From contig CAWGHD010000001.1 in the NCBI GenBank assembly GCA_963822295.1, positions 4,577-68,576 of the forward strand: 64,000 bases of DNA, written 5' to 3'. Of the stretch, positions 1 to 28,640 are shown piece after piece (the stretch's first letter is position 1; the number at the start of each line of letters is the position of its first letter). Below the pieces are notes generated by a model. The model was given only the letters and a program-made list of their open reading frames with translations, was not told where the DNA came from and did no database searches. The translations under genes and the position numbers were made by a program. The stretch is from an uncultured Solirubrobacterales bacterium (lineage in GTDB: Bacteria; Actinomycetota; Thermoleophilia; Solirubrobacterales; 70-9).

Positions 1-543
1 TCGCCGCCTCCCAGAACGGCATCTTCATGACCGACGACGGGCGCGCCTTCTTCTCCACAGCCGATGCGCTGGTCCCGCGCGACGCCAACGGCATCGTCGA
101 CATCTACGAGTATGTCGAGGGCCGCGCACAGCTGATCAGCACCGGCACCGGCAACGACGCCGGCGAAGCGATTCGCCCGATCGGCTTGGTCGGGGTCTCG
201 GCCGACGGCACCAACGCTTTCTTCTCCACTTACCAGACCTTGGTGGGGCAGGACGAAAACGGCCCCTTCTACAAGCTTTACGTCGCCCGTACCAACGGCG
301 GCTTCCCGTTCAACAAACCTCCTGCTCCCTGTGCGGCCGCCGATGAGTGCCACGGGCCCGGCGCTGCCCCACCGGCGATGCCACAGGTCGGCTCGGGGGC
401 GATTGTCGGCGGCGGCAACGCGACTGTCGTGCGCAAGAAGCGAAAGCGAGCTCGCAGCGCAACTCACCGAGCGCCGACGCGATGCCAGGAAGCGCCGCGC
501 CAAGGAAAGGGCTCGGGCGAAGGCAGGAAGGTCGAAGAGATGA
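1..543 (+). CDS. 3' end of a large secreted beta-propeller (PD40/TolB-like repeat) protein, paralog of the C-terminus of 3351..8779 (5'-partial; one apparent +1 disruption near 420-440)
   Basis: Frame-3 translation 'DGRAFFSTADALVPRDANGIVDIYEY..DGTNAFFSTYQTLVGQDENGPFYKLYVARTNGGFPFNKPPAPCAAADECHGPG' parallels 'DGKDAFFFTREVLVGEDKNGQAMKVYDAREGGGFFVIPPPPPCAASDECHGPS' of the 3351..8779 protein. The basic tail '..RRAKERARAKAGRSKR*' is in frame 1 and stops at 541-543, overlapping the next ATG (ATGA). Confidence 0.55.
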
Positions 544-3354
544 GGTCGGCGGCGTGTAGGCAGACTGGTTCTTGGGGCGCTCGGCATGTGCGCTGCGGCC
601 TGCCTTCTCCTCGGCGGCTCGGCGCCGAGAGGGCCGAAGCAAAATCGACCGTCTTCACCTTCACCAACACCCCGTCGGGCACCCAGGCGGGGTCGCATCC
701 CAACGTCCTCACGAGCACAGAGCTGGGCAATCGCTTTAACCAAGGGCCGATGCCGGCCTGCGAATGCAACGACCCCAAAGACGTCACCATTCACGCCCCC
801 GCTGGGCTTGTCGCCAACCCCCACGTGGTCTCCGAGTGCACGACGGCTGAGCTCTCGACTTTTTCCTGCCCGCCTGATGCCCAGGCCGGGTTTGTGGTGC
901 TGCGTTTCTTTAGCTGGGGCGTGATCCCGCTTTACCGCACCGTGCCCCAGGAGGGCCAGGCGGCCCTTTTCGTCTTCCTGCCACCAATTGGCATCGCGAT
1001 CCCCCAATACATTGCGATCAACGCCAGGACCGGCGGAGACTACGGGATCGACTTTACGGTCACTGGGCCTCACCCACACCCTGCCGCCGAGCTCCTTCGG
1101 CAACGTCTTCTGGGGGGTGCCGGGGGCCGAGGATCACGACGTCGTCCGCTTCGGCCCGGCGGGAGCAGCTTCTCAACTGCAACACCAACCCGATCGAGTC
1201 GCTGTTTGTCGACGTGATTCCCGAGGACTGCAGCGTGGTCAACGCCAGTGGCTCCCAGAGCCCCAAGCAACCCGCACTCCTCCTCCCTGCCCGTCGCCCC
1301 TTTCACCCAGGCTCCGACCACCTGCGTCGGCCCACTCACCTCGAGCGTCGAAACCCTCGCCTACGACGGCGAGACCGACAGCGCCTCGGCCCCCTGGCCC
1401 GAAACCACGGGCTGCGACAAACTGAGCTTCGACCCGAGCCTGTCCGCGAACCCGACGACGACGCAGACCGACACCGCCTCGGGGTTGGCCGTCAACCTCA
1501 AAGTCCCCCAGTACCAGGACCCGGAGACCCCACTCTCCTCGGCGATCAAAGCGACCACGGTCACCCTGCCGGAGGGCTTCTCGATCAACCCCAACGCCGC
1601 CGACGGCAAGGTCGCCTGCACCGAGCAGCAGGCGGGCTTCGGCATCAGAGGCCCCATCGGGCTGCCCGGAGTTCTCAAAGATCGGCACCACCACCGTCGA
1701 CTCCTCAGCCCTCCCGGCCCCCATCAACGGCTACATCTACCTCGGCGAGCCCAAACCGGGAGACCGCTACCGGATCTTCCTCACCGCCGAGGGCTTCGGC
1801 ACCAACGTCAAGCTCTCCGGCATCGGTAAGGCCAGACCCGAAAACCGGCCAGATCGTCACCGCCTTCGAATCGCTGCCCCAGGCCCCCTTCCAGGAGTTC
1901 GACCTGCACTTCTTCGGCTCCGAGCGCGGACTTGCTCGCGACGCCCGAGCGCTGCGGCACCTATCCGGTCAAAACGCACCTTCAAGCCGTGGGCCGCAGA
2001 GCTCTCCGATCAGACCTCCACGCAGTTCTTCACGCTGGACTCCGGACCCGGAGGGCAAGCCCTGCCCACAACGGCCCACGTCCCTTCGCCCCCTCCCTGC
2101 AGGCCGGAGTCGCCGACAACACGGCCGGGACCCACTCGCCCTTCGTGCTGCGCTTCGACAGGACAGACGGCGATCAGAACCTGACCGGCGCCACCGTCAA
2201 GGCACCGCCGGGATTCGCCGCGACCCTCAAGGGCATCCCCTACTGCCCGGAGGCGGCGATCGCCCAGCTCGCCTCCGCCACCTACACCGGCCTCGCAGAG
2301 CAGGCCTCGCCCTCCTGTCCGGCCGCCAGCCAGATCGGCAGCGCCGTCGCCGCGGCCGGAGCGGGAAGCAGACCGATCCACGTCTACGGCCAGGTCTACC
2401 TCGCCGGCCCCTACAAAGGCTCCCCTTTGAGCCTGGTGGTCGTGATCCCGGCCGTCTCCGGTCCCTATGACCTCGGAGTCGTCGCGGTGCGAGCCGCGAT
2501 CGACCTCGATCCCCAAAGCGCCCAGGTAAGCGCCACCTCCGATCCCCTGCCCCAGATCCTCGAGGGAGTCCCACTGCGAACCAGGATGGTCCAGATCGAC
2601 CTCGACCGCCCCGGCTTCGCACTGAACCCGACCAACTGCGATCCCTTCGCAGTCGATGCGCTCCTGCTCGCGGACGAAGGCGCGAGCTCAAACCAAAGCG
2701 CCCACTTCCAGGTCGCCAACTGCGCCGACATGCCCTTCGCGCCGAAGCTCTCCCTGGCGCTGCAAGGGATCGACCAAGCGCACCGGCAACCCGGCCCTGC
2801 GGGCGACTCTGAGGACCGAGCCCGGCGAAGCCAACATCGCCCGCACCGCGGTGACGATGCCGGCCACCCTGCTGCTCGACAACGGCCACATCGGCAACGT
2901 CTGCACCAGGCCCCAGTTCGCAGCCAACGCCTGCCCGGCCGGATCGATCATCGGCACCGCCACCGCGACCACGCCGCTGCTCGATCGCCCCTGCTAAGCG
3001 GCACCGGTCCTCCTCAGGTCCTCATCGAACAAGCTCCCCGACCTCGTCGCAGACCTCGAGGGGCAGTTCGAGATCGAGCTCGTCGGCAAGATCGACTCCC
3101 CCAAAGGCCAGGGACTTCGCACCACCTTCGAGACGATCCCCGACGCCCCGGTCTCGAGCTTCACCTTGAGTCTCTCCGGAGCCTCCAAGGGGCTGCTGAC
3201 CAACTCCAAGGATCTCTGTAAAGCCCCCCAGAAGGCGAAGCTACAGATGACCGCACAAAATGGCCGCTCCTTCAACCGCAAGGTCAAGCTGCAGAGTGCC
3301 TGCAAGGCCCGCAAGAAGCAAAAGCGCGCCAAGCGAGGGGCGCTGCGGCGATGA
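540..3354 (+). CDS. secreted four-module Cys-pair repeat protein, paralog 1 (~935 aa if repaired). The frame is broken about 12 times as sequenced, so an automated pipeline would call it a pseudogene.
   Basis: ORF fragments 27..1217, 988..1425, 1214..2470, 1248..1829, 1932..3221, 2656..2997 and 3166..3354 chain into one protein collinear with 8776..11535. Examples: 'FWGVPGAEDHD' vs 'FWGMPGHEDND'; 'LSANPTTTQTDTASGLAVNLKVPQ' vs 'LSANLTSKETDSASGLDLNFRVPQ'; 'SKDLCKAP' vs 'TKDLCKGP'. ATG 540 overlaps the upstream stop (ATGA); stop at 3352-3354. Confidence 0.6.
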
Positions 3355-6300
3355 GGGCCTCCATCAAGACAGCGAGCCTCGCCCTGGCCTGCGCGGCTGC
3401 CTCGCTTGCGATCGGCGCGGGCGTCGCCCAGGCGGAGATCAGCTACCAGTCGAGCATCGGCGAATCAGGCGCCGGGGCGGGCAAACTCTCAAACCCGGCC
3501 GGCCTCGCCGTCAACACGACCACCGGCGACCTCTACGTGGCCGATCGCGGCAACAACCGGATCTCCCAGTTCAGCTCCGCGGGAGCTTTCATTCGCGCCT
3601 TCGGGTACAACGTCGTCGCCTCCGGCGAAGACGACAAACCCTTCGCCGACGAGGTCTCTGAAGTGCGGATCAGGGCGACCTCGGGTTCCTTCGCTCTGAC
3701 CTTCAAAGGCCAGAGCACCGCCCAGCTTGACTTCGACGCCTCCGCCGCTGAAGTCGAAGCGGCCCTCAACGGGCTCTCGACGATCTCAGAAGGCGGGGGA
3801 TCGGTCACCGTCTCCGGCGGTCCCGGCGACGTGAGCGGGGCCGATCCCTACGTCGTCACCTTCAGCGGTGGGCCATTGGCGAAAACCAACCTCGAGTTGG
3901 GGATCGATGCGAGTGGGCTCGGGATTCCCTGCGGGGACCGAGCTGAGCTGCCAGGGGGGCCCCAGCGACGCCGGCGCCTTCGCCTACCAGTGGCTGGCCA
4001 ATGGAGAGTCGGTCCCCGGCGCGACATCGCCGACCTTCACCCCTGGTGTCGGTGAGCAAGGCAAGGCAATCCAGTGCCGAGTGGCTGCGAGCTTCAGCTC
4101 AGTCAAAACCCTGGCGACCTCCCGTCCCTACTTTCTCGCCTCTCCGGCGCCCGCCACCCTTCCTCCGCTGGGTCCGACGTCCCTGGATGCCCCGGAAGGC
4201 AGTGCGGTGCTCGAAAGTGCCGGCGGCGTGCCGCTCACCTGCAACGCCGGCACTTGGACCCGGGGCCCGGAAACCTTCACCTACCGCTGGTATCGCAATG
4301 GAGTCGAAGTCGGGACGCCGACCATCACTGCGGCAACGTCGAGCCAATACGTGCTTACCCAGGGAGATTTGGCGACCCGTGCCGTCTTCCAGTGCTCGGT
4401 CACGGGCAACAACGCCGGCGGCTCGAGTATCGCGATCAGCAAATTCAACCCGACCGACCCCAAACCGATTCAGCCCGAGGCAAAAAACGCGACAGTGAGC
4501 ACTTCGCTCGCTCTCTCGAGCGCCTCCAGCGTGCTGACTCGCACCAACGGCGGCGCGGTCTTTGAGGTCTGCAAAGCCAGCCCGCCCTCAAACGACGTCT
4601 GCAAGGTTGGGATCGCGGGCGACGGGGTCGGCCAGTTCAATGCTCCGCGCAGCATCGCGATCGACAACTCACCGAGCGGGTCCGGTGCGGTTTACGTGAT
4701 GGACGACGGTAATCCACGGGTGCAGAAGTTCAGCGCCCTGGGGGCTCCGATCTCGATGCTCGGCGGTGGGGTCAATCAGACCACCGATGGCGACCTCTGC
4801 ACTATTGCCTCCGGCGATGCCTGCGGTGGGGGAGTGGTGGACGAAAGCGGGGCCGTGGGGGCATTCGGCGGCTCGCCCGGTACTTCCGCTGACTTCACCG
4901 AACTCGGCAACGAGCTGGCTGTGGACGCCGTCGGCAATCTCTATGTGGGCGATGCGCGCGCCGATTTGATCCAGCCGCGGATCCAGAAGTTCGATTCTGC
5001 TGGTGTCTTCCTGTCGCAGGCAAGGATGCCGTATGTGTTTGGCAACCCCTCTCAGCCGGTAAAGCCGGTGTCGGTTGCAGCCGACTCCACCCAGCGAGCC
5101 TTCGCGGCGACCCGCGGCGACGATGGGGGGATCGAGAAGTTCTCCACGGGGGAATTCAGCCCTCTGGGCCAAGGAGCGATCAGGGCGGGCAACTTCTTCC
5201 ACCAAGACGGCGATCCCGTTCAGCTGGCGCTTGACCCTCGCAACGACCGCCTCCTGGTTTCTGATCCAAACAAATCCGCGGCGCTTTCGCTCTGCGGCGG
5301 CCCGGGAGTTTCTGCTCTGGCCATTGCCGAGTACGACCCACAGTTGCACCGCATCGACTGCAGCATTCCGACCGGCCCCGGCCTGCTCACCCAGGTAACC
5401 GGCATGGCGGTCTCCAAAACGGGCACCCTCTACGCCTCGGTCGGCTCGGCCAACACGGTCAAGGTCTTCAAACTCCCGGTCTCGACCGCTCCGCAGCTGA
5501 CCAGCCCTTCGGTCACCGAGATCACAACCGAGACGGCGGTGGTCCACGCCCAGATCAACCCCGGCTTCGAGGACACCACCTACAAAGTCGAATACGGCCT
5601 CGCCAACTGCGCGACCAACCCCTGCGAAACGGCGGCTGGTCCCGACACCCTCTACGGCCTCAAATTCACCGACGGCGCCACCGCGATCAGCGGTCTGGAG
5701 CCCAACACCACCTACCGCTACCGGGTGATCGCCGAAAACAAACTCGGCAAAGCGACCGGACCCAACCGCTCCTTCCGCACCTTCCCCCTGGTCGACCTGG
5801 TCAACGACCCCTGCGCCAATGCCTTGGCCCGCAAGCAGACCAAGACGGTCGGCCTTTTGGACTGTCGCGCCTATGAGCTTGCCTCGGCGGCCTTCTCGGG
5901 CGGCTATGACGTCGTCTCTGACCTGGTCCCAGGCCAAAGCCCCTTCGAGGGCTACCCCGACGCAGAGGACAAGCTCCTCTACGGCGTAAAGGACGGTGGC
6001 ATCCCGGGAACCGGCAACCCGACCAACAGGGGCATCGACCCCTACGTTGCGAGCAGGGACGAGGACGGCACCTGGTCGACCACCTACGTCGGCATCCCCG
6101 CCGACAACCCGTTCGCTACAGGGCCCTTCTCCTCGACCCTGGCCGGCGCAGACAACGGACTGGATACCTTCGCCTTCTCAGGACCGGAGATCTGCGATCC
6201 CTGCTTTGCGGACGGATCCACCAACGTCCCCCTGCGGCTCCCCGACGGGGAGATCGTCAAGGGGATGGCGGGATCGCTCAATCCAGCAGCAGACTCCGCG

Positions 6301-8779
6301 GGAGGGATCGCAAAACCGCTCTCGGCAGACGGCTCCCACTTCCTCTTCAGCTCAGAGCTCCCATTTGAGGGCTCCCCGGTCTCAACCGGCGAAGTGATGA
6401 TCTATGACCGCGATCTGAAAGCCGGAACCACCCAGGTCGTCTCGACGCTGCCGAGCGGAGAAGCGATCCCCGGAGGAGTGCCCGGCTCAGAGGATGTCGC
6501 AGCCCTCGACATCTCCAAAGACGGCTCCAGGGTCCTGATCGGGCAGAGGGTCGCAACGGATGCAAAGGGCAACGCCCTCTGGCACCTCTACCTGCACCTC
6601 GGCACCTCGCCCAACAGCGTCGATCTGAGCGAAGGGACGACCTCGGGCGTCTACTTCAACGGGATGACCCAGGACGGCTCCAAGGTCTTCATCACGAGCA
6701 AAGACAAACTGCTGGGCGAAGACACAGACGAAAGCGCCGACATCTATAGAGCAGACGTCGACTCCGGCGGAGCACTCGGCCTCTCGCTCGTCTCGGTCAA
6801 ATCGACGGGAGCGGTCTCCAACTCAAACGCCTGCACCCCCGCCGGGGAACCGGCCAGCTGGAACTCCGCATCGGGCGACGGCAAATGCAATGCCCTGGCC
6901 TTCGCCGGCGGTGCGGGACTCGCCGCCGAGAGTGGTGCCTTCTACTTCCTCAGCCCCGAGCGCCTAGAGGGGACCAAAGGAACTCTCAACCAGGCCAACC
7001 TCTACCTGATCGCTCCCGGTGCCGCCCCCCGCTTCGTGGCGATGATCGACACCTCGGTCGGCAAGCCCCCGGCCTCGCCTCCCGAGCATCCTCTGATCGA
7101 CTCCGAATTCGGCGATGTGAGCTTCGAAGCCGTGCAGGCGCTCAGCGTCGATCAATCCAACGGCGATCTCTACGCGCTCGATCCCGGCGCCGGCGAGCTG
7201 CATCGCTTCGACTCCGCCGGCAGCCCTGAGAACTTCAGCGCCGGACCGGACGCCGGGACCAACACCCTGACGGGCCTCGCCCTGGGCAGCCCCTCCGTCG
7301 CCCAGGTCGCGATCGACAACTCCGCGAGCGCTCTCAGCGGTGACTTCTACGTCGCCAGTGAAGGCGGCGTCGACGTCTACGCCCCCAGCGGCGAGAAACT
7401 GGGCACGCTCGACGGCTCCGCCACCAACAAAGGCTCCTTCGGGGCGTCCTGCGGCGTCGCCGTGGACAAATCCAACGGCGCGCTCTACGTCGGTGACGCC
7501 GGTGGCAACCTCTGGCGCTACCAGCCCGAGCAGCCCGGTCGCCCCGATGATGACGCCGACTACACCGTCAAAGGGATCGCCACCACGGGGATGCAGCCCT
7601 GCGCGGTGGCGGCGGACTCAGCCGGCAAGGTCTATGCATCGCAGGTCTTCGGCGGCCCGGTGAAGCGGTTCGCGGCCGCGAGCTTCTCCTCCGGTAGTCC
7701 GACTCAATCGGCCGGGATCGAGATCGCCTCCGCCGCCCGCGCCCTAGCCGTCGACCCCGCCACCAACCACCTCTACGTCGATGAGGGCGACAGGATCTCG
7801 GTCTTCGACTCGGCGGGCAACCCGCTGGAGACGATCGGCCAGGGCAAACTCTCCTGCGGCTTCCTCGGCTCAAGAGGCGTCGCCGTCAACTCCACCACCC
7901 ACCACGTCTACGCCTCCTGCTTCGCGCCCTCGACGATCAAGGAGTTCGGCTACGAGGTGCCGCCATATACCCCCGTGGACAACCCGGCGATCCTCAACGC
8001 CACAAAGCAGGTCGGAGACCCACACCTACGGCGACTTCCAGGTAACCCCCGACGGTGCCTATGCGGCCTTCGCGACGATCATGCCGCTGAAAGCCGGCTA
8101 CGACAACGCCTCCCGCTATGAGCTCTACCGCTACGAGCCCACAGGCGGCGAAGAAGAAACGGGAGAGCTGATCTGCGCCTCCTGCAGCCCGACCGAATCT
8201 CAAGCCCAGAGCGACTCCGTCCTTCCCCCCAACGGATTGGGCCTGCTCGAAGACGGCAGGGTCTTCTTCAACACCGGTGAGCAGCTGACCCTCAGAGACA
8301 CCAACGGCAAGCTCGACGCCTACCAGTTCTCCCCGCAGGGAGACCCAGAAGTGCCGGGGGCCTGCAAGATCGAAGGCGGCTGCCAGCAGCTGATCTCGAC
8401 CGGCAACTCCGCCTTCCCCTCCGGAATGCTCGGAGCAAGCAGGGACGGCAAAGACGCCTTCTTCTTCACCAGAGAGGTCCTGGTCGGGGAAGACAAAAAC
8501 GGCCAGGCGATGAAGGTCTATGACGCCCGCGAGGGCGGAGGCTTCTTCGTGATCCCACCACCGCCCCCCTGCGCGGCATCGGATGAGTGCCACGGACCGA
8601 GCTCCCAGGCAGCTCCTCCGCCCCCGATCGGCTCCTTCAAGGGAAGCGGCGGCCAGCACACCGATGAAGCAAAGCCGGCCAAGTGCCGCAAAGGCAAGGT
8701 CCGCCGCCGCGGCAAGTGCGTCCCCAAGCCCAAGGCCAACCGCAACCGCAAAGCATCGAAGCGGGGGAGGGGCCGATGA
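3351..8779 (+). CDS. giant secreted NHL-repeat / beta-propeller / FN3-like exoprotein (~1809 aa; two apparent +1 disruptions near 3930 and 8013)
   Basis: Signal peptide 'MRASIKTASLALACAAASLAIGAGVAQA'. NHL-type repeats ('LSNPAGLAVNTTTGDLYVADRGNNRISQFS', 'AVYVMDDGNPRVQKFS', 'RALAVDPATNHLYVDEGDRISVFD'). Tandem Ig-like repeats 'YQWLANGESVPGATSPTFTP' / 'YRWYRNGVEVGTPTITAATSSQYVLT'. FN3-like 'LEPNTTYRYRVIAENKLG'. PD40-like 'DGSKVFITSKDKLLGEDTDESADIYRADV'. ORFs 3351..4055, 3868..8121 and 7781..8779 chain in order. Confidence 0.7.
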
Positions 8780-11535
8780 GCTCCCTCCATCAGCGAAGCC
8801 CCAGGTTTCTCCTCTGCGCCCTCACGGCAGCCCTCCTGGCGCTCGCCCTCTCCTCGAGCGCCCAGGCCAAAATCACCATCTCCTCGCTGACCACCACCGC
8901 CTCCGAAAACCAAGCCGGCGGCCACCCCGACCTCACCACCTCCTTTGAGCTGGCAAACCCAGGCGCACCGGAGGCGGCAAAAGACGTCATCTTCGAAGCC
9001 CCCGAGGGCATCTTCGGCAACCCCAACGCCCTGACCCGCTGCACGGCGTCTGACTTCGCCCTGCAGCAGTGCCCGGTCAACTCCCAGGCGGGACTGGTGA
9101 CGATCACCGCCAAGCAGGGCGCCGACCCCAACGTCTTGCTGGGAACCGCCCCCCTCTTTGACATGGAGCCCTCCGAGGGGGAGACGGCGAGGTTCAACCT
9201 CATCGTCCCGACATTGAACATCCCGATCGCGATCCCGGTCGCGGTCAGAAGCGCCGATGACTACGGACTTCGCTTCACGCGTCTCTGAAATCTCCCAGCT
9301 GACCCCGCTCTCAGAAGTCGACATGACCTTCTGGGGGATGCCCGGCCACGAAGACAACGATCCCTCCCGTTTCCCCAAAGGATCCCCAGGTGCCCCAGCC
9401 GGCTGCCCATCCCAGGCCGATGCCTCCTGCATCTCTGCGCCCTCATCGGTCTCGATCTCCGTCAAGCCCCTGATCGACTACCCGACCACCTGCAACGGCG
9501 ACCCCTTGATCACAAAGCTCTCGGTGCGCTCCTACCAGGACCCCAAAGCCCTCTCCACCGAAGAGGCCTCCTACCCCCCGGTCGACGGTTGTGAGAAAGG
9601 GACCTTCAACCCGGTCCTCTCCGCCAACCTGACGAGTAAAGAGACAGACTCCGCATCTGGCCTGGACCTCAACTTCAGGGTCCCCCAGACGCTCGGCAAA
9701 ACCCCCTCGCCCTCCCAGGCCAAGTCGGTCACCGTCGCCTTCCCACCCGGATTGACGATCAACCCCGACGCCGCCGACGGCCAGAGCGACTGCAAAGACT
9801 CAGAGGCCAACTTCGACTCAGAGGCCCCTGCCTCTTGCCCCGACAACGCCAAGATCGGCACCGTCTCGAGGTCGCCACCCCGGCCCTCGACGGCCCCCTC
9901 AAAGGCTCGATCTACATCGGTCGAGCCCAAACCAGGCGATCAGTACCGCCTGTTCATGGTCGTCTCTGGCTTCGGGATCAACGCCAAGCTGATCGGCTCC
10001 TTCAAACCCGATCCGACAACAGGGCAGCCTGACCGCTTCCTTCTCCGACCTCCCCCAGGTCCCCTTCGAGGAATTCGACATCCACCTCTTCGCCTCTGAC
10101 AGAGGCCTGATGGCGACCCCGACCGCCTGCACCCTCTACCCGGTCAAAGCGACCTTCGAGCCCCACAACGCCACCCTCGCCCCCCAGACCTCCCAGCAGT
10201 TCTTCAGCCTGGACTCCGGGCCCGGGGCAGCCCAGTGCCCGGGCCAGGTCAGGCCCTTCAGCCCAAGGCTCGTGGCGGGAACCTCAAACCCCCTCGCCGG
10301 AGCCTTCTCGAGCTTCCACCTCAAGCTCGACAGAGACGACGGCGACCAGTTCCTCGACGACCTCGGCTTCAAGATGCCCCCCGGCTTCACCGGATCGCTT
10401 AAAGGCATCACCTACTGCCCGGAGGCCCAGATCGCCGCGGCGGCCCAGAACCTCGGCAAGACAGAGCGGGGCAGCCCCTCCTGCCCCGGTAGCTCCTTCG
10501 TCGGCACCACCAACGTCGCCGCCGGACCGGGCAGCCATCCCTTCAACGCGGTCGGGCGGATGTACTTGGCGGGGCCGCTGCAAGGAGCCCCCCTCTCCCT
10601 GGCGGCGATCACCCCGGCCCTGGCCGGCCCCTATGACTACGGCGTCGTCGTCGTGCGGGTCGCCCTGCACGTCGATCCCCTCACCGCCCAGGTCTCAGCG
10701 GACTCAGAGCCGATGCCCCAGATCATCGGCGGCATCCCGATCAGGATGCGATCGATCCAGGTCAACATCGACAAGCCCAACTTCACGATCAACCCGACCA
10801 ACTGCTCGCAACTTCACGGTCGACTCCAAAGGCGTCGGAGACCAGGGCACCGCCACCCTCTTCTCCTCACCCTTCCACGCCGTCAACTGCAGATCGCTTC
10901 CCTTCGCCCCGAAGATGACGATCACCCAGCTCGGCAAGCGCAAGGACACCAAACGAAACAGAAACCCGGTCCTTCGCTTCGAGCTGAAAACAAGGCCAGG
11001 AGACGCCAACCTCAAAGACCTCTCGGTCACCCTCCCCAAGGCCTTCGCGATCGACCAGCGCCACCTCGGCAACCTCTGCTCCAAAGCCCAGCTTGCGTCT
11101 GAGCGCTGCAAAGGACGCCAGCCGATCGGATCGGCCTGGGTCAAGACCCCGCTCCTAGACGAGCCCCTGCAGGGACCCGCCTACGCGGTATCGGGCTTCG
11201 GCATCCTCCCCAGGGTCGCCTTCATCCTCGAGGGCCAGGTGACGATCATCCCCCAGGCGGAATCGGAGTCGGTCAAGCTCGGCAAACGCGAGGGCTTCTT
11301 GAAGACCACCGTCGGGGTCATCCCCGACGCCCCGATCGGGCACTTCAGACTCGACCTGCTCGGAGGCAAGCAGGGCTACCTGATCAACACCAAGGACCTC
11401 TGCAAGGGCCCGGTCATCGCCACCGTTGACTACGGGGCCCAGAGCGGCAAGAAGCTCAGGCAGAGGGTCCGGGCCAAGACGGCCTGCCCGGGGGCCCGCA
11501 AGGGCAAGCGGGGCGCCCAGCGCTCGCGGCGTTAA
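8776..11535 (+). CDS. secreted four-module Cys-pair repeat protein, paralog 2 (~920 aa if repaired; 5 apparent disruptions near 9280, 9866, 9922, 10028, 10809)
   Basis: ATG 8776 overlaps the upstream stop (ATGA). Signal peptide 'MSSLHQRSPRFLLCALTAALLALALSSSAQA'. ORFs 8683..9288, 9257..10099, 9835..10032, 10110..11102 and 10633..11535 chain into one protein collinear with 540..3354. Four repeats of a '..P.G(F/L)...C-x(8-20)-C...(I/V)G' module. K/R-rich end 'ARKGKRGAQRSRR*'. Confidence 0.65.
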
Positions 11536-11676
11536 GGAAAACCAAAGACACCTTGAGCATCCGGAGCGCTACAGTTCCCGCCCGGGTTTCGATAAACGAA
11601 GCGAATCTTTGAGCGCGCAGGGGGGTTCCTTTAACCGGAGCCGCGCACTCAAAACGCAAAGCGGAGGAGAGAGCAG

Positions 11677-12306
11677 ATGCATCTGGGGAATCGCAGTATC
11701 GGCAGGCCCTCACCGGCGATGATCGTCGCGATCATCGCCCTGATCGCCTCTCTTTCAGGCTCCGCCTACGCGGCGCTTGGCAAGAACTCGGTCGGCTCGC
11801 GCCAGCTCAAGTCGGCGGCCGTGACCACCGGCAAGATCGCCAACAACGCCGTCAACGGCAAAAAAGTCGCCAACGGCTCCCTCTCGGGCGAGGACATCAA
11901 CCTCGCCGCGCTCGGCACCGTCCCGGCCGCCACCACCGCGACCTCGGCCGGCAACGCCGACACCGTCGCCGGGCACGCCGCCGCCTGCCCACCGGCGACG
12001 ACCCTGATCCGCGGCACCTGCTTTGACTCCTCCGCGGGCCCGGTCGTTACCTCCGTCGAAGCCGCGGCGGACGCCTGCGCGGCCAAGGGCGGGCGCCTGC
12101 CAGACCCCTTGGAGCTCTACGCCACCCGCTCGATCCTCAACCTCGGCACCGGCACCGGCACCGACAACCAGTTCACCAGCGCCTACTACGCCAACACCAA
12201 CGGCGGCGACTACAACACGATCGTCGTCAACGGCACCGGCGCCCTGATCGAGCAGGAAATCACCTCCGACGCCCGCTACACCTGCGCCTACGCGCTGGTG
12301 CGCTAG
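11677..12306 (+). CDS. hypothetical N-terminally anchored or secreted protein (209 aa)
   Basis: Intact ORF with GGAGGAG 7 nt upstream of the ATG. Hydrophobic N-terminus 'AMIVAIIALIASLSGSAYAA'. Short 'VTTGKIANNAVNGKKVANGSLSGEDI' repeats followed by a Cys-containing C-terminal domain. No family recognised. Confidence 0.6.
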   Translation: MHLGNRSIGRPSPAMIVAIIALIASLSGSAYAALGKNSVGSRQLKSAAVTTGKIANNAVNGKKVANGSLSGEDINLAALGTVPAATTATSAGNADTVAGHAAACPPATTLIRGTCFDSSAGPVVTSVEAAADACAAKGGRLPDPLELYATRSILNLGTGTGTDNQFTSAYYANTNGGDYNTIVVNGTGALIEQEITSDARYTCAYALVR

Positions 12307-12316
12307 GGACCCGGCG

Positions 12317-13102
12317 ATGAGGATCGGCTTCTCAAAGACCGCCCTGGCGGCCCTCGGCATCCTCGCCGTGGCGGGGGCGGGCCTGGCCTCCGCGGAGGTC
12401 GGCCAAAAAGACAACATCCGGGTCACCTTCTCGGGCTCGATCGCCCCGGTCAAGCTGCCGCGCACCGGCACCGCCCCGATCGGGGTGCAGCTGGGCGGCA
12501 AGATCAAGACCACCGACCCGGCCAACCCGCCGATCCTCGACCGCATCATCCTCGAGATCAACCGCAACGGCCACATCCAGACCAAGGGCCTCGGGACCTG
12601 CTCGCTGGCAAAGCTGCGGTCGGTCTCCGCCGCGGCGGCCAAACGCAGCTGCGCCGAGGCCCTGATCGGCCGCGGCAACGTCACCTCCCGGGTCTCCTTC
12701 CCCGGCCAGGGCGCCTTCGCCGTCAACGGCACCCTGCTGGCCTTCAACGGCCGCCACAAGGGCGGGGAGGCGATCTTTGCCCAGGTCACCAACGGAGCGC
12801 CGCTGGTCACCACCTACGTGATCGTCTTCGAAGTCAAGAAGACCGGCGGCACCTTCGGTGCCTCCCTCAACGGCACCCTGCCCCCGATCGCCTCCGAATA
12901 CGGCTACATCTCCGCCTTCAACATGAACCTGCGCCGCACCTACACCTACAAGGGCAAGAAGATGAGCTACGCCTCTTCCGGCTGCCCGGCGGCGAAAGGA
13001 TTCCCCGGCGCCACCTTCCCGCTGGCAAGGGCGAGCTATGAGTTCGAGAGCGGGGTCAAGATAACGAGCACCTTGAATCGCGAATGCAAGGTAAGGGGGT
13101 AG
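12317..13102 (+). CDS. secreted single-module protein related to the four-module partners (261 aa)
   Basis: Signal peptide 'MRIGFSKTALAALGILAVAGAGLASA'. 'ILEINRNGHIQTKGLGTCSLAKLRSVSAAAAKRSCAEALIGRGNV' matches the Cys-pair module of 8776..11535. Paralog of 13108..13863. Confidence 0.65.
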   Translation: MRIGFSKTALAALGILAVAGAGLASAEVGQKDNIRVTFSGSIAPVKLPRTGTAPIGVQLGGKIKTTDPANPPILDRIILEINRNGHIQTKGLGTCSLAKLRSVSAAAAKRSCAEALIGRGNVTSRVSFPGQGAFAVNGTLLAFNGRHKGGEAIFAQVTNGAPLVTTYVIVFEVKKTGGTFGASLNGTLPPIASEYGYISAFNMNLRRTYTYKGKKMSYASSGCPAAKGFPGATFPLARASYEFESGVKITSTLNRECKVRG

Positions 13103-13107
13103 GGGAG

Positions 13108-13863
13108 ATGAGGAAGGCACTCGTATTGGTAGCAAGCCTGGCGCTGGTGGTGCCGGCGATCGCCCAGGCCGCCGGGCAGACGGTCAAGGCCGGCAACCTG
13201 GTGGTGAACATCGACGGCAAGATCACCCCCTCCAAGCTCTCCAAGACCAAGCCGGCGCCGATCGCCCTGGAAGTCAAAGGCTCCCTCGGCACCGCCGACG
13301 GCACCCACGTCCCCGCCCTCAAGGAACTGTTCCTGGAATTCGACAAAAACGGCCACCTCAACACCAAGGGCCTGGCCAGCTGCACGGTCGGCAAGCTGAA
13401 CTCGACCCTGACCTCCCAGGCCAAGCAGGTCTGCGGAGCGGCCCTGGTCGGCAGCGGTCGCGCCAGCGCCGAGATCGCCTTCCCAGAACAGCCCCCCTTC
13501 AGCGCCGGCGGGCCGCTTCTGATCTTCAACGGCTCCAAGGGCAACAAGCAGGAACTGATCATCCACGTCCACGCCTCGGTCCCGGCCCCGACCACCTTCG
13601 TCACCACCGCCAAGATCGGCAAGGGCAAGGGCCTCTACGGCACCTCGGCCAAGATCGCGGTGCCGACGATCACCTCCGGGCAGGGCTCCCTGATCGCCTT
13701 CAACGCGAAGATCTCCAAAACCTTCAAGGTCAAAGGTCAAAGCCAGGCGGTGCTGACCGCCACCTGCAAGACCGGCACCCTGCAGGCCTCGGGCGACTTC
13801 ACCTTCACCGACGGCACCAAGATGTCTGGCAAAGTAACCCGGCCCTGCACACCGAGCAAATGA
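13108..13863 (+). CDS. secreted single-module protein, paralog of 12317..13102 (251 aa from ATG 13108; ATG 13084 also possible)
   Basis: 'MRKALVLVASLALVVPAIAQA' signal peptide with GGGGAG just upstream. 'FLEFDKNGHLNTKGLASCTVGKLNSTLTSQAKQVCGAALVGSGRA' aligns residue-for-residue with the neighbouring gene. Confidence 0.65.
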   Translation: MRKALVLVASLALVVPAIAQAAGQTVKAGNLVVNIDGKITPSKLSKTKPAPIALEVKGSLGTADGTHVPALKELFLEFDKNGHLNTKGLASCTVGKLNSTLTSQAKQVCGAALVGSGRASAEIAFPEQPPFSAGGPLLIFNGSKGNKQELIIHVHASVPAPTTFVTTAKIGKGKGLYGTSAKIAVPTITSGQGSLIAFNAKISKTFKVKGQSQAVLTATCKTGTLQASGDFTFTDGTKMSGKVTRPCTPSK

Positions 13864-14351
13864 GGAGAGCCACCCCGATGAGAGCCCTCGCCGTCCTCGC
13901 CGCCACCGCGATCGCCGCCATGGCCATGGCCCCCGCGGCGCTGGCGATCGAGCGCCCCGAATACAAGGAAGCGGTCGAGCCGATCTGCCAGGCCAACACC
14001 AAAGCCAACGAACGCATCCTCAAGGGCGTGCGCAACTTGGTCAAAGACGGCAAGCTGGGCCCCGCCGCGACCAAGTTCTCAAAGGCCGGCGCCGCCTTAA
14101 AGAAAGCCCACACCCAGCTCACCGCGGTCGAAAAGCCCGCCGCCGACGTCGCCAAGCTCGACAAATGGCTGGGCTACGTAAAGACCGAGGCCGACCTCTT
14201 CAACCAGGTCGCCGCCAAGCTGCGCCAGAACAAGAAGGGCGCCGCCCAGACCCTGGTCAACAAGCTGACCACCAACGCCAACCAGGCAAACGCCCAGGTG
14301 CTGGCCTTCGGCTTCCGCTACTGCCGCTTCGAACCCTCCAAATTCACCTAG
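13860..14351 (+). CDS. small secreted hypothetical protein (163 aa; alternative start 13878)
   Basis: ATGA overlap with the upstream stop. Signal peptide 'MRALAVLAATAIAAMAMAPAALA'. Helical, Lys/Ala-rich mature part. No family recognised. Confidence 0.55.
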   Translation: MRRATPMRALAVLAATAIAAMAMAPAALAIERPEYKEAVEPICQANTKANERILKGVRNLVKDGKLGPAATKFSKAGAALKKAHTQLTAVEKPAADVAKLDKWLGYVKTEADLFNQVAAKLRQNKKGAAQTLVNKLTTNANQANAQVLAFGFRYCRFEPSKFT

Positions 14352-15657: not shown

Positions 15658-15730
<73 letters not shown>

Positions 15731-15782
15731 TCTGCGCGCCCTGCGAGCCCTCCGCCGCGCGCTGACGCTAGGCTCCCCGCCC

Positions 15783-16929
15783 GTGGACTTCTCTCTGACC
15801 GACGAGCAGCAGGACTTCGTCGCCGCGATCCGCGATTTCTGCGAGCGCGAGTGCGGGACCCAGGAGCAGCGCGAGAGGCTGACCGAGGGCTACACGAGCT
15901 CCACCACAACGACGCCCTCTACAAGCAGATGGCCGAGCTGGGCTGGCTCGGCGTCACGATTCCCGAGGAGTACGGCGGCTCGGGCGGCTCGATGCTCGAC
16001 GCCTGCCTCTTCATGGAGGAGATCCGCGCGGGGTCTGGCCCCGATCGGCGGCTACGCGACGACGCTGATCGTCGCCGGCGCCACCCAGCGCTTCGGCACC
16101 GACGAGCAGAAGCGGGAGATCCTCGGCGGGATCGCCGGTGGCGCGGTCGAGGCGATCGCGATGACCGAGCCCGAGGCCGGCTCCGACGTCGGCGCTCTCA
16201 CCACCTCGGCCGAGCGGGTCAACGGCGGCTTCGTCCTCAACGGGCAGAAGGTCTTCATCTCCAACGCCCACATCGCCGACCACATCCTCGTCGTCTGCCG
16301 TACGACCAAGGGCGAGTCCAAGCACGAGGGCCTCTCGATGATCTGGCTCCCCCGCGAGACGAAGGGGCTCGAGATCGTCCCGATCAAGACGATGGGCGGC
16401 GAAGAGACCAACCACCTCTACCTGACCGATGTCGAGGCTCCCGGCCGACGCCGTCCTCGGCGAGGTCGACCAGGCCTGGACCCAGCTGATGGCGGGGCTC
16501 AACGTCGAGCGGCTGATCCTCGCCGCGACGATGCTCGGCATCGCCCAGCGCGCCTTCGACGATGCCCTCGCCTACGTCAAGGAGCGCAAGCAGTTCGGCC
16601 GCCCGATCGGCTCCTTCCAGGCGCTCCAGCACCGGCTCGCCGACATGGCAACCGAAATCGAGGCCGCTCGCCTGATGACCCGCTGGGTGGCGACCCTGAC
16701 CGACGAGGACCCCGGCCGGATGCTGCCGCGCGAGGCATCGATGGTGAAGCTGCATGTGACCGAGGTCGCCAAACGCGTCGCGGTCGAGGGAATGCAGCTG
16801 ATGGGCGGCTACGGCTACTCCTCCGAGTACGACATGGAGCGCCTCGTCCGCGCGACGATGGTCTCGACGATCTACGGCGGCACCTCGGAGATCCAGCGCA
16901 CGATCATCGCCAAGACGCTCGGGCTCTGA
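15783..16929 (+). CDS. acyl-CoA dehydrogenase (3 apparent disruptions near 15893, 16026, 16438)
   Basis: 'MDFSLTDEQQDFVAAIRDFCEREC', 'LYKQMAELGWLGVTIPEEYGGSG', 'AMTEPEAGSDVGALTTSAERVNGGFVLNGQKVFISNA' and 'ERKQFGRPIGSFQALQHRLADMATEIEAARL..YGGTSEIQRTIIAKTLGL' are typical ACAD motifs. They are spread over ORFs 15783.., 15689.. and 16429..16929. Confidence 0.85.
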
Positions 16930-17004
16930 GTAGGAGAGAGGGGCGCTAGGCACCGCGTCGGACGGCACCGCGCCTCGGTGCCTCATAGCGCTATTCTTCG
17001 GTTC

Positions 17005-21026: not shown

Positions 21027-28640
<7,614 letters not shown>

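Follow-up and report, generated by a model that had tools for sequence, protein, structure and literature searches.

Which protein family is encoded between positions 8776 and 13863 of a 64,000-nucleotide stretch of DNA from an uncultured Solirubrobacterales bacterium, and what is the sequence unit that defines it? The stretch, hereafter the window, corresponds to C1:4577-68576 of a 2.74-Mb genome assembly (70% GC) that consists of two contigs, C1 and C2. A preliminary description of the window had proposed a cysteine (Cys)-pair module of ~40 amino acids, present in four tandem copies in ~920-aa proteins and in one copy in each of two smaller secreted neighbours. We found that the gene at 8776-11535 encodes a Sec-exported protein of ~919 aa that is built from four tandem homologous domains of ~200-245 residues each, typically ~210, with two Cys pairs per domain. 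As the best explanation overall, to which we assign a probability of roughly 70%, the small neighbouring proteins are probable relatives of this domain, and the four-domain protein would be a stalk or scaffold, stapled by disulfides, that partners surface proteins with NHL propellers. The features on which the following analysis relies are:

8776-11535, plus strand: four-repeat gene of type A (the '920-aa partner'), broken by five 1-nt insertions or deletions (indels)
8776-8868, plus strand: Sec-type signal peptide (MSSLHQRSPRFLLCALTAALLALALSSSAQA / KIT...), with an N-terminal hydrophobic segment conserved in paralogs
8869-9604, plus strand: repeat R1, opening with a conserved QAGGHPD strand and containing Cys pair 1 (module 8986-9099), Cys pair 2 and an extra, optional Cys pair at 9398-9436
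9605-10250, plus strand: repeat R2, including module 9728-9865
10251-10896, plus strand: repeat R3, including module 10362-10508; best match to the small family
10897-11487, plus strand: repeat R4, including module 11020-11142
11488-11532, plus strand: short C-terminal tail, rich in Lys/Arg, that follows the last Cys and has no LPXTG and no hydrophobic anchor
12317-13102, plus strand: S1, 261 aa, signal peptide and one domain with Cys95-Cys112 and Cys223-Cys257
13084-13863, plus strand: S2, 259 aa if read from the first ATG, a single domain whose four Cys match those of S1

All six peptides that had been quoted as copies of the module are present, i.e., four in the large gene at the module positions given above and two in the small genes, at 12566-12682 and 13348-13464. 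To delimit the repeats we cut the intact reference paralog L021 (904 aa) into R1 (residues 27-272), R2 (273-486), R3 (487-702) and R4 (703-896) and compared the four profiles with hhalign at two alignment depths, i.e., with 24 intact paralogs or with 142 sequences after 118 metagenome homologs had been added. With the 24 paralogs, all six pairs of repeats matched at probabilities of 95-99% and E-values between 4.5e-8 and 9.6e-18; over both depths the range was 92-99% and 4.7e-7 to 9.6e-18. The four-fold internal repeat claimed for 8776-11535 is thus significant in every pairwise comparison, and a chance motif is ruled out by the hhalign results among R1-R4. The repeats differ in their divergence among paralogs, which is highest in R1 (42-50% identity) and lowest in R3 (59-76%).

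The cysteines define the repeat unit. In the alignment of 24 paralogs we found 18 conserved Cys arranged as nine spaced pairs. The first pair of each unit (84/94, 335/350, 542/564 and 762/772) has 9-21 residues between the two Cys, a preceding 'LPxGxxxNP' motif and an 'xxxG' motif after the second Cys. The second pair (235/268, 446/482, 671/699 and 865/893) has 27-35 residues between its Cys; it is preceded by 'NPTxC', and its second Cys lies just ahead of the 'FxP' that opens the next unit. The 16 Cys of these eight pairs are invariant in 142 of 142 sequences, and the optional ninth pair in R1, C206/C214, is lost with both Cys together. Exactly 18 Cys were counted in 13 of the 24 four-repeat paralogs and exactly four in 17 of 21 small proteins; other Cys are absent from most four-repeat paralogs. 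The ~40-aa module of the preliminary description hence covers no more than the first Cys loop. The real unit is a domain of ~210 aa that comprises 11 strands and both Cys pairs, the second of which, also invariant, is placed around the last hairpin.

An AlphaFold2 model of the intact paralog L021 reached a predicted local distance difference test score (pLDDT) of 86.9 and a predicted template modelling score (pTM) of 0.74. Secondary structure assigned with DSSP followed the same order in all four units, i.e., b1-b2-b3, 'LPxGxxxNP', Cys, one or more short helices, Cys, 'xxxG', b4-b9, 'NPTxC', b10-b11, Cys. The model of S1 (pLDDT 88.4, pTM 0.83) gave three strands (residues 34-43, 56-65 and 74-82), C95, helices, C112, six strands, C223, two strands and C257. 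By a comparison of strand order only, S1 and R1-R4 share the order of strands and helices and the positions of both Cys pairs. The models place the predicted fold in the class of large extracellular β-sandwiches.

Comparison of these models with solved structures by Foldseek yielded loose resemblances. For the four-repeat model, integrin alpha ectodomains ranked first (1jv2_A, E 2.7e-9, TM 0.13), and the template modelling score (TM) was low in the further matches as well, which comprised large adhesin repeats, Saf pilus subunits and macroglobulin domains. For S1, the best matches were Ig-like domains of adhesins and pilins and integrin alpha legs, at TM 0.34-0.38. When S1 was compared with integrin alpha chains, a fold-level TM above 0.5 was not reached (best TMq 0.36-0.38, E 0.05-0.19). 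Because the TM values to solved structures are low, we use 'integrin-leg-like' below to denote a loose resemblance.

Sequence searches led to no known family. Scans against Pfam-A and NCBIfam with pieces of the window, four intact paralogs, 32 four-repeat members and 34 small members assigned none of them to a family; stray matches had E-values of 0.005 or worse, far under the cut-offs. None of the 360 database homologs listed carries a precomputed Pfam domain, and all of them are annotated as 'hypothetical protein'; those that bear a name come from metagenome-assembled genomes of Solirubrobacterales. Profile searches of PDB sequences gave nothing below E 0.1, and a literature search found nothing on the system of four-repeat and small-domain proteins. 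Identity with a known family is ruled out by the empty Pfam, NCBIfam and PDB-profile searches, together with a Foldseek search of the single domain (S1) against PDB and BFVD that returned no match at E ≤ 0.001. The domain family is uncatalogued, i.e., it has no Pfam, NCBIfam or PDB sequence match, in agreement with the earlier suggestion that it may be undescribed.

As assembled, the gene at 8776-11535 is not a single open reading frame (ORF), contrary to what had been assumed. The ORF listing shows overlapping pieces at 8683-9288, 9257-10099, 10110-11102 and 10633-11535. The four peptides quoted from the large gene lie in frames 1, 2, 0 and 1 (mod 3), and since they occupy three reading frames, the gene cannot be read through. 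Aligning the gene to intact paralogs and inspecting its DNA, we placed five single-base indels:

9273-9280, plus strand: indel 1, near 9275, extra C, frame 1 to 2
9862-9866, plus strand: indel 2, near 9863, one base missing, frame 2 to 1
9919-9925, plus strand: indel 3, near 9921, extra C, frame 1 to 2
10019-10027, plus strand: indel 4, near 10021, extra C, frame 2 to 0
10803-10812, plus strand: indel 5, near 10806, one extra base, frame 0 to 1

With four insertions and one deletion, the net gain is 3 nt, which leaves the start (8776) and the stop (11533-11535) in the same frame. A gene with five indels might be a real pseudogene, and this copy and its upstream twin at 540-3354, which has several indels plus an in-frame stop, would then both be decaying within a large paralog family; 24 intact paralogs elsewhere would make the loss of two copies tolerable. 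We regard such decay as very unlikely, however, in view of the other genes on the 71.7-kb contig C1. Here rpoB is broken into three ORFs (window 21283-24591), and frameshifts also split the gene for ribosomal protein L1 (18787-19623) and an acyl-CoA dehydrogenase gene (15689-16949), so that essential single-copy genes are damaged alongside the four-repeat genes. The genome has its sole copies of rpoB and rpoC on C1, and C1 must therefore bear many indel errors. On contig C2, by contrast, 23 of 24 four-repeat paralogs are full-length and the remaining one has a single N-terminal frameshift. Outside the indels, the frames of 8776-11535 show no decay and retain 55-74% identity to paralogs. Because the only rpoB of the genome is split on the same contig and the C2 paralogs are nearly all intact, we conclude that the five indels are almost certainly errors of contig C1 and not biology.

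We then have to ask whether S1 and S2 carry the same domain as the large protein. The two are 31.5% identical to each other and belong to a small family with 21 paralogs in the genome, in which four Cys, at 95/112 and 223/257, are invariant. For S2, the ATG at 13108, preceded by GGGGAG, is the likelier start. In hhalign comparisons, the small-family profile matched R3 with E-values between 7.7e-5 and 5e-4 (probability 32-62%) and R1 with 2.8e-4 to 7e-3; both alignments cover an equivalent 110-140 columns and hold both Cys of pair 1 in register. Decoys of two kinds, reversed and block-shuffled, were compared in ~84 trials and reached E 0.006-0.01. The real small-family E-values are hence 10-100 times better than the best decoy, a margin short of overwhelming. 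When the repeat hidden Markov models (HMMs) were run on the ORFs of the own genome, small-family ORFs were among the top non-family matches (Mann-Whitney U test, p 5e-3 to 2e-13). We give this rank enrichment little weight because the control set includes many non-coding ORFs. The link was not improved by AlphaFold2-derived secondary structure in the HH profiles, and a broader small-family profile from 137 diverse representatives left the E-values about the same. A search for stand-alone R3-type proteins returned only fragments of four-repeat proteins.

Several points weigh against the interpretation given at the outset. The probability of the match between small family and repeats is at most 62%, i.e., below conventional certainty, and R2 and R4 gave no signal with the small family. 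A merged four-repeat profile brought no improvement (E 2.5e-3 to 1e-2), and decoys come as close as E 0.006-0.01. The TM of the single domain to any solved structure is low (0.34-0.38), and the four-repeat copy in the window is itself frameshifted. Localisation, complex formation and binding, finally, are inferred.

The profile scores among these points would suit a locus with two domain families, in which the ~260-aa proteins form an unrelated β-sandwich family that has come to share two Cys pairs and its size with the repeats by convergence. The spread of the small family among related genomes, narrower than that of the four-repeat family, would suit it too. We think this rather unlikely, since R1 and R3 align to the small family over equivalent columns with the first Cys pair in register, at E-values 10-100 times better than the best decoy, and since strand order and all four Cys positions are identical in AlphaFold2 models that were computed independently; moreover, both domain types are associated with NHL-propeller proteins. 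On the basis of borderline profile scores combined with identical predicted strand and Cys topology, we therefore consider it probable that the small proteins belong with the repeats. S1 and S2 are probably single-copy relatives of the repeat domain that share common ancestry with it. The earlier proposal of one copy in each small neighbour hence stands as far as predicted strand order and Cys pairs are concerned, whereas the profile match is borderline (best E 7.7e-5). The number of family members at the locus had been put at six; the window holds four such genes with ten domain copies in total.

These ten copies include those of a second four-repeat gene, which lies upstream and is separated from the first by a gene for a giant exoprotein:

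~540-3354, plus strand: second gene with four repeats (partner of type B), at 42-54% identity to the paralog C2:2127845-2130577
3351-8779, plus strand: giant Ig/FN3/NHL-propeller exoprotein gene, upstream of the type A partner and frameshifted here

The second of the '~920-aa partners' is the gene at ~540-3354, and both copies are frameshifted as assembled. The type B partner is the more severely damaged of the two: besides several frameshifts, its repeat R4 contains a TAA codon in frame (2995-2997). The ATG of the type A partner overlaps the stop codon of the giant gene (ATGA at 8776-8779).

This arrangement recurs throughout the genome. Of its 26 four-repeat genes, ~22 are located directly downstream of a gene for a giant Ig/FN3/NHL-propeller exoprotein; the single-domain paralogs number 21. 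Most cassettes are double, with giant B followed by partner B, giant A and finally partner A. By summed locus coordinates, all cassettes together amount to ~155-170 kb, i.e., ~6% of the 2.74-Mb assembly. Small genes lie within ~5 kb of a four-repeat gene in 7 of 21 cases, often together with homologs of the 209-aa and 163-aa genes of the window (see below).

The small-type domain was also found in further architectures. It forms tandem doublets (P0247, P0299), and in homologs from other Solirubrobacterales and from metagenomes it stands C-terminal to an NHL/SGL propeller in proteins of 600-1,010 aa, some of which also contain divergent InlB B-repeats. Between the fused propellers and that of the giant in the window we found similarity at E 2e-5 to 2e-6. 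Within the own genome, an NHL-propeller gene at C2:1971060-1973323 (minus strand) lies directly upstream of a small-family gene, as a separate gene, and both are located between two four-repeat genes; its counterpart in the fused metagenome homolog P0262 is 55% identical over the propeller. From this pattern of fusion and fission we conclude that the Cys-pair domain is functionally tied to NHL propellers.

Two further small genes accompany S1 and S2 in the window. The gene at 11677-12306, between the partner and S1, encodes a 209-aa protein whose N-terminal 60-80 residues recur in about ten tandem paralogous small genes at C2:2484933-2492110 with ~750 bp spacing. One full-length homolog of this protein, encoded at C2:2277493-2278095, is likewise flanked by a partner gene and small genes; another is encoded at C2:1749987-1750613. 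The gene at 13860-14351 encodes a helical secreted protein of 163 aa; its ATG overlaps the stop codon of S2 (ATGA), and it has five paralogs. Because three of these five adjoin small-family genes (C2:2278113, 2119980 and 1963810), the 163-aa gene looks like an accessory of the cassettes.

What, then, might the four-repeat protein do? N-terminal signal peptides are present, and the genome encodes a VKOR homolog at C2:783044-783403 that scores 82.9 bits, above the cut-off. Taken together with the invariant paired Cys, their even number, the scarcity of other Cys and the pairwise loss of C206/C214, signal peptides and VKOR are consistent with an extracellular, disulfide-stabilised protein. Neither an LPXTG motif nor a hydrophobic run was found near the C-terminus in any of 142 four-repeat and 141 small proteins. 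In the window, partners and giants alike have short C-terminal tails that are rich in Lys/Arg and lack a hydrophobic segment (3303-3354 and 11488-11532 for the partners, 8545-8779 for the giant), and among the 142 partner homologs the C-terminal tail has a median length of 12 residues, 50% of which are K or R. This basic tail may be a signal for non-covalent retention at the envelope.

We propose the following model. The invariant Cys pairs would form disulfides, one of which would clamp the helical loop between b3 and b4, and the other would staple the C-terminal hairpin. Rigid extracellular modules would result, and four of them in a row could serve as a stalk or scaffold resembling the legs of integrins. 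The four-repeat protein would associate with the co-translated giant and bind or carry its NHL-propeller heads in a cell-surface binding complex, which the basic C-terminal tail would keep on the anionic cell envelope. Diversified binding specificity might be supplied by the variable N-terminal R1 together with the propellers.

A different role is conceivable for a protein whose gene is paired with that of the giant in a nearly strict manner, with overlapping reading frames, and that comes in two types, A and B, each behind its own type of giant. The four-repeat protein could serve the giant NHL protein as a dedicated helper, i.e., an extracytoplasmic chaperone for folding or assembly, an inhibitor or an immunity-like partner, and not a stalk. 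Strict one-to-one pairing and co-diversification would find an explanation in such a helper, and the pTM of 0.74 for the four-domain chain suggests a defined and possibly compact arrangement. However, the Pfam and NCBIfam scans detected no catalytic or chaperone family. Moreover, four large Cys-paired β-sandwiches, with integrin legs, adhesin repeats, pilus subunits and macroglobulin domains as their Foldseek neighbours, are typical of structural or adhesive surface proteins, and the fusion of a related domain C-terminal to NHL propellers fits a structural part better than an inhibitor. We hence consider a helper function unlikely and prefer the stalk or scaffold.

The stalk or scaffold finds its closest parallels among three known systems. 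Like the thigh, calf-1 and calf-2 domains of integrin alpha legs, the repeats are predicted to be large, disulfide-bearing extracellular β-sandwiches that would stand in tandem beneath a β-propeller head. In Foldseek, integrin alpha legs ranked first for the four-repeat model (1jv2_A, see above) and were among the top matches of S1 (8gcd_A, 3fcs and 8t2v, probability 0.98-1.0). Sequence identity is only 6-9%, however, with an empty profile search of the PDB, and TM amounts to 0.12-0.18 when the whole chain is compared and to 0.36-0.38 with the single domain. Unlike in integrin alpha, the propeller here is of the NHL type and is usually encoded on a separate polypeptide, and a transmembrane anchor is missing. 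Adhesins and pilins of Gram-positive bacteria contain Ig-like domains (Sgo0707 N-domain 4igb, BcpA 3rkp, EbpB 9lr7, SdrD 4jdz) that are likewise secreted tandem β-sandwiches of the cell surface and were among the best S1 matches, with E 0.019-0.2 and weak TM of 0.28-0.36. In contrast to their isopeptide bonds and LPXTG/sortase anchor, the proteins described here have two invariant Cys pairs and no LPXTG. Exoproteins with NHL propellers and a 'divergent InlB B-repeat' (PF01436, PF18998) carry the small-type domain in fused form (P0272, P0304), and the giant of the window is of the same kind. They represent the partner or carrier and not the domain itself, since the Cys-pair domain matches neither PF01436 nor PF18998.

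The parallel with integrins could be taken further. Giant and four-repeat partner might together form a two-chain 'head on legs' surface receptor with an integrin-alpha-like layout, of which at least 20 diversified copies would serve as a variable recognition repertoire, with the single-domain proteins as minimal or accessory legs. We offer this as a speculative and improbable extension of the stalk or scaffold model.

Solirubrobacterales are among the commonest uncultured soil Actinomycetota. Each of the 18 same-genus genomes that we searched contains four-repeat proteins (9-35 matches per genome), and so do most other families of the order Solirubrobacterales. In a phylum-wide sample searched at a cut-off of 1e-5, they were found in 4 of 201 genomes, three of which belong to the same order. 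The small family is present in 18 of 18 same-genus genomes and in some sister families. An exhaustive profile search collected 2,599 clusters at 50% identity for the small-type domain, and the four-repeat proteins number at least 1,789 at 90% clustering. A definition of the domain would provide a name and boundaries for thousands of 'hypothetical proteins'. It would also make accessible to experiment a major protein system of soil bacteria that is probably exposed at the surface and diversifying, and to whose cassettes of giant and four-repeat genes a small genome devotes ~6% of its length.

A few database homologs carry the labels Limnocylindrales or Anaerolineales (Chloroflexota; P0158, P0457), and one match of the phylum sample lies in a distant actinobacterial family (G218, 89% complete, 4% contamination). 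Both the Chloroflexota-labelled homologs and the G218 match could stem from mis-binning or from rare transfer.

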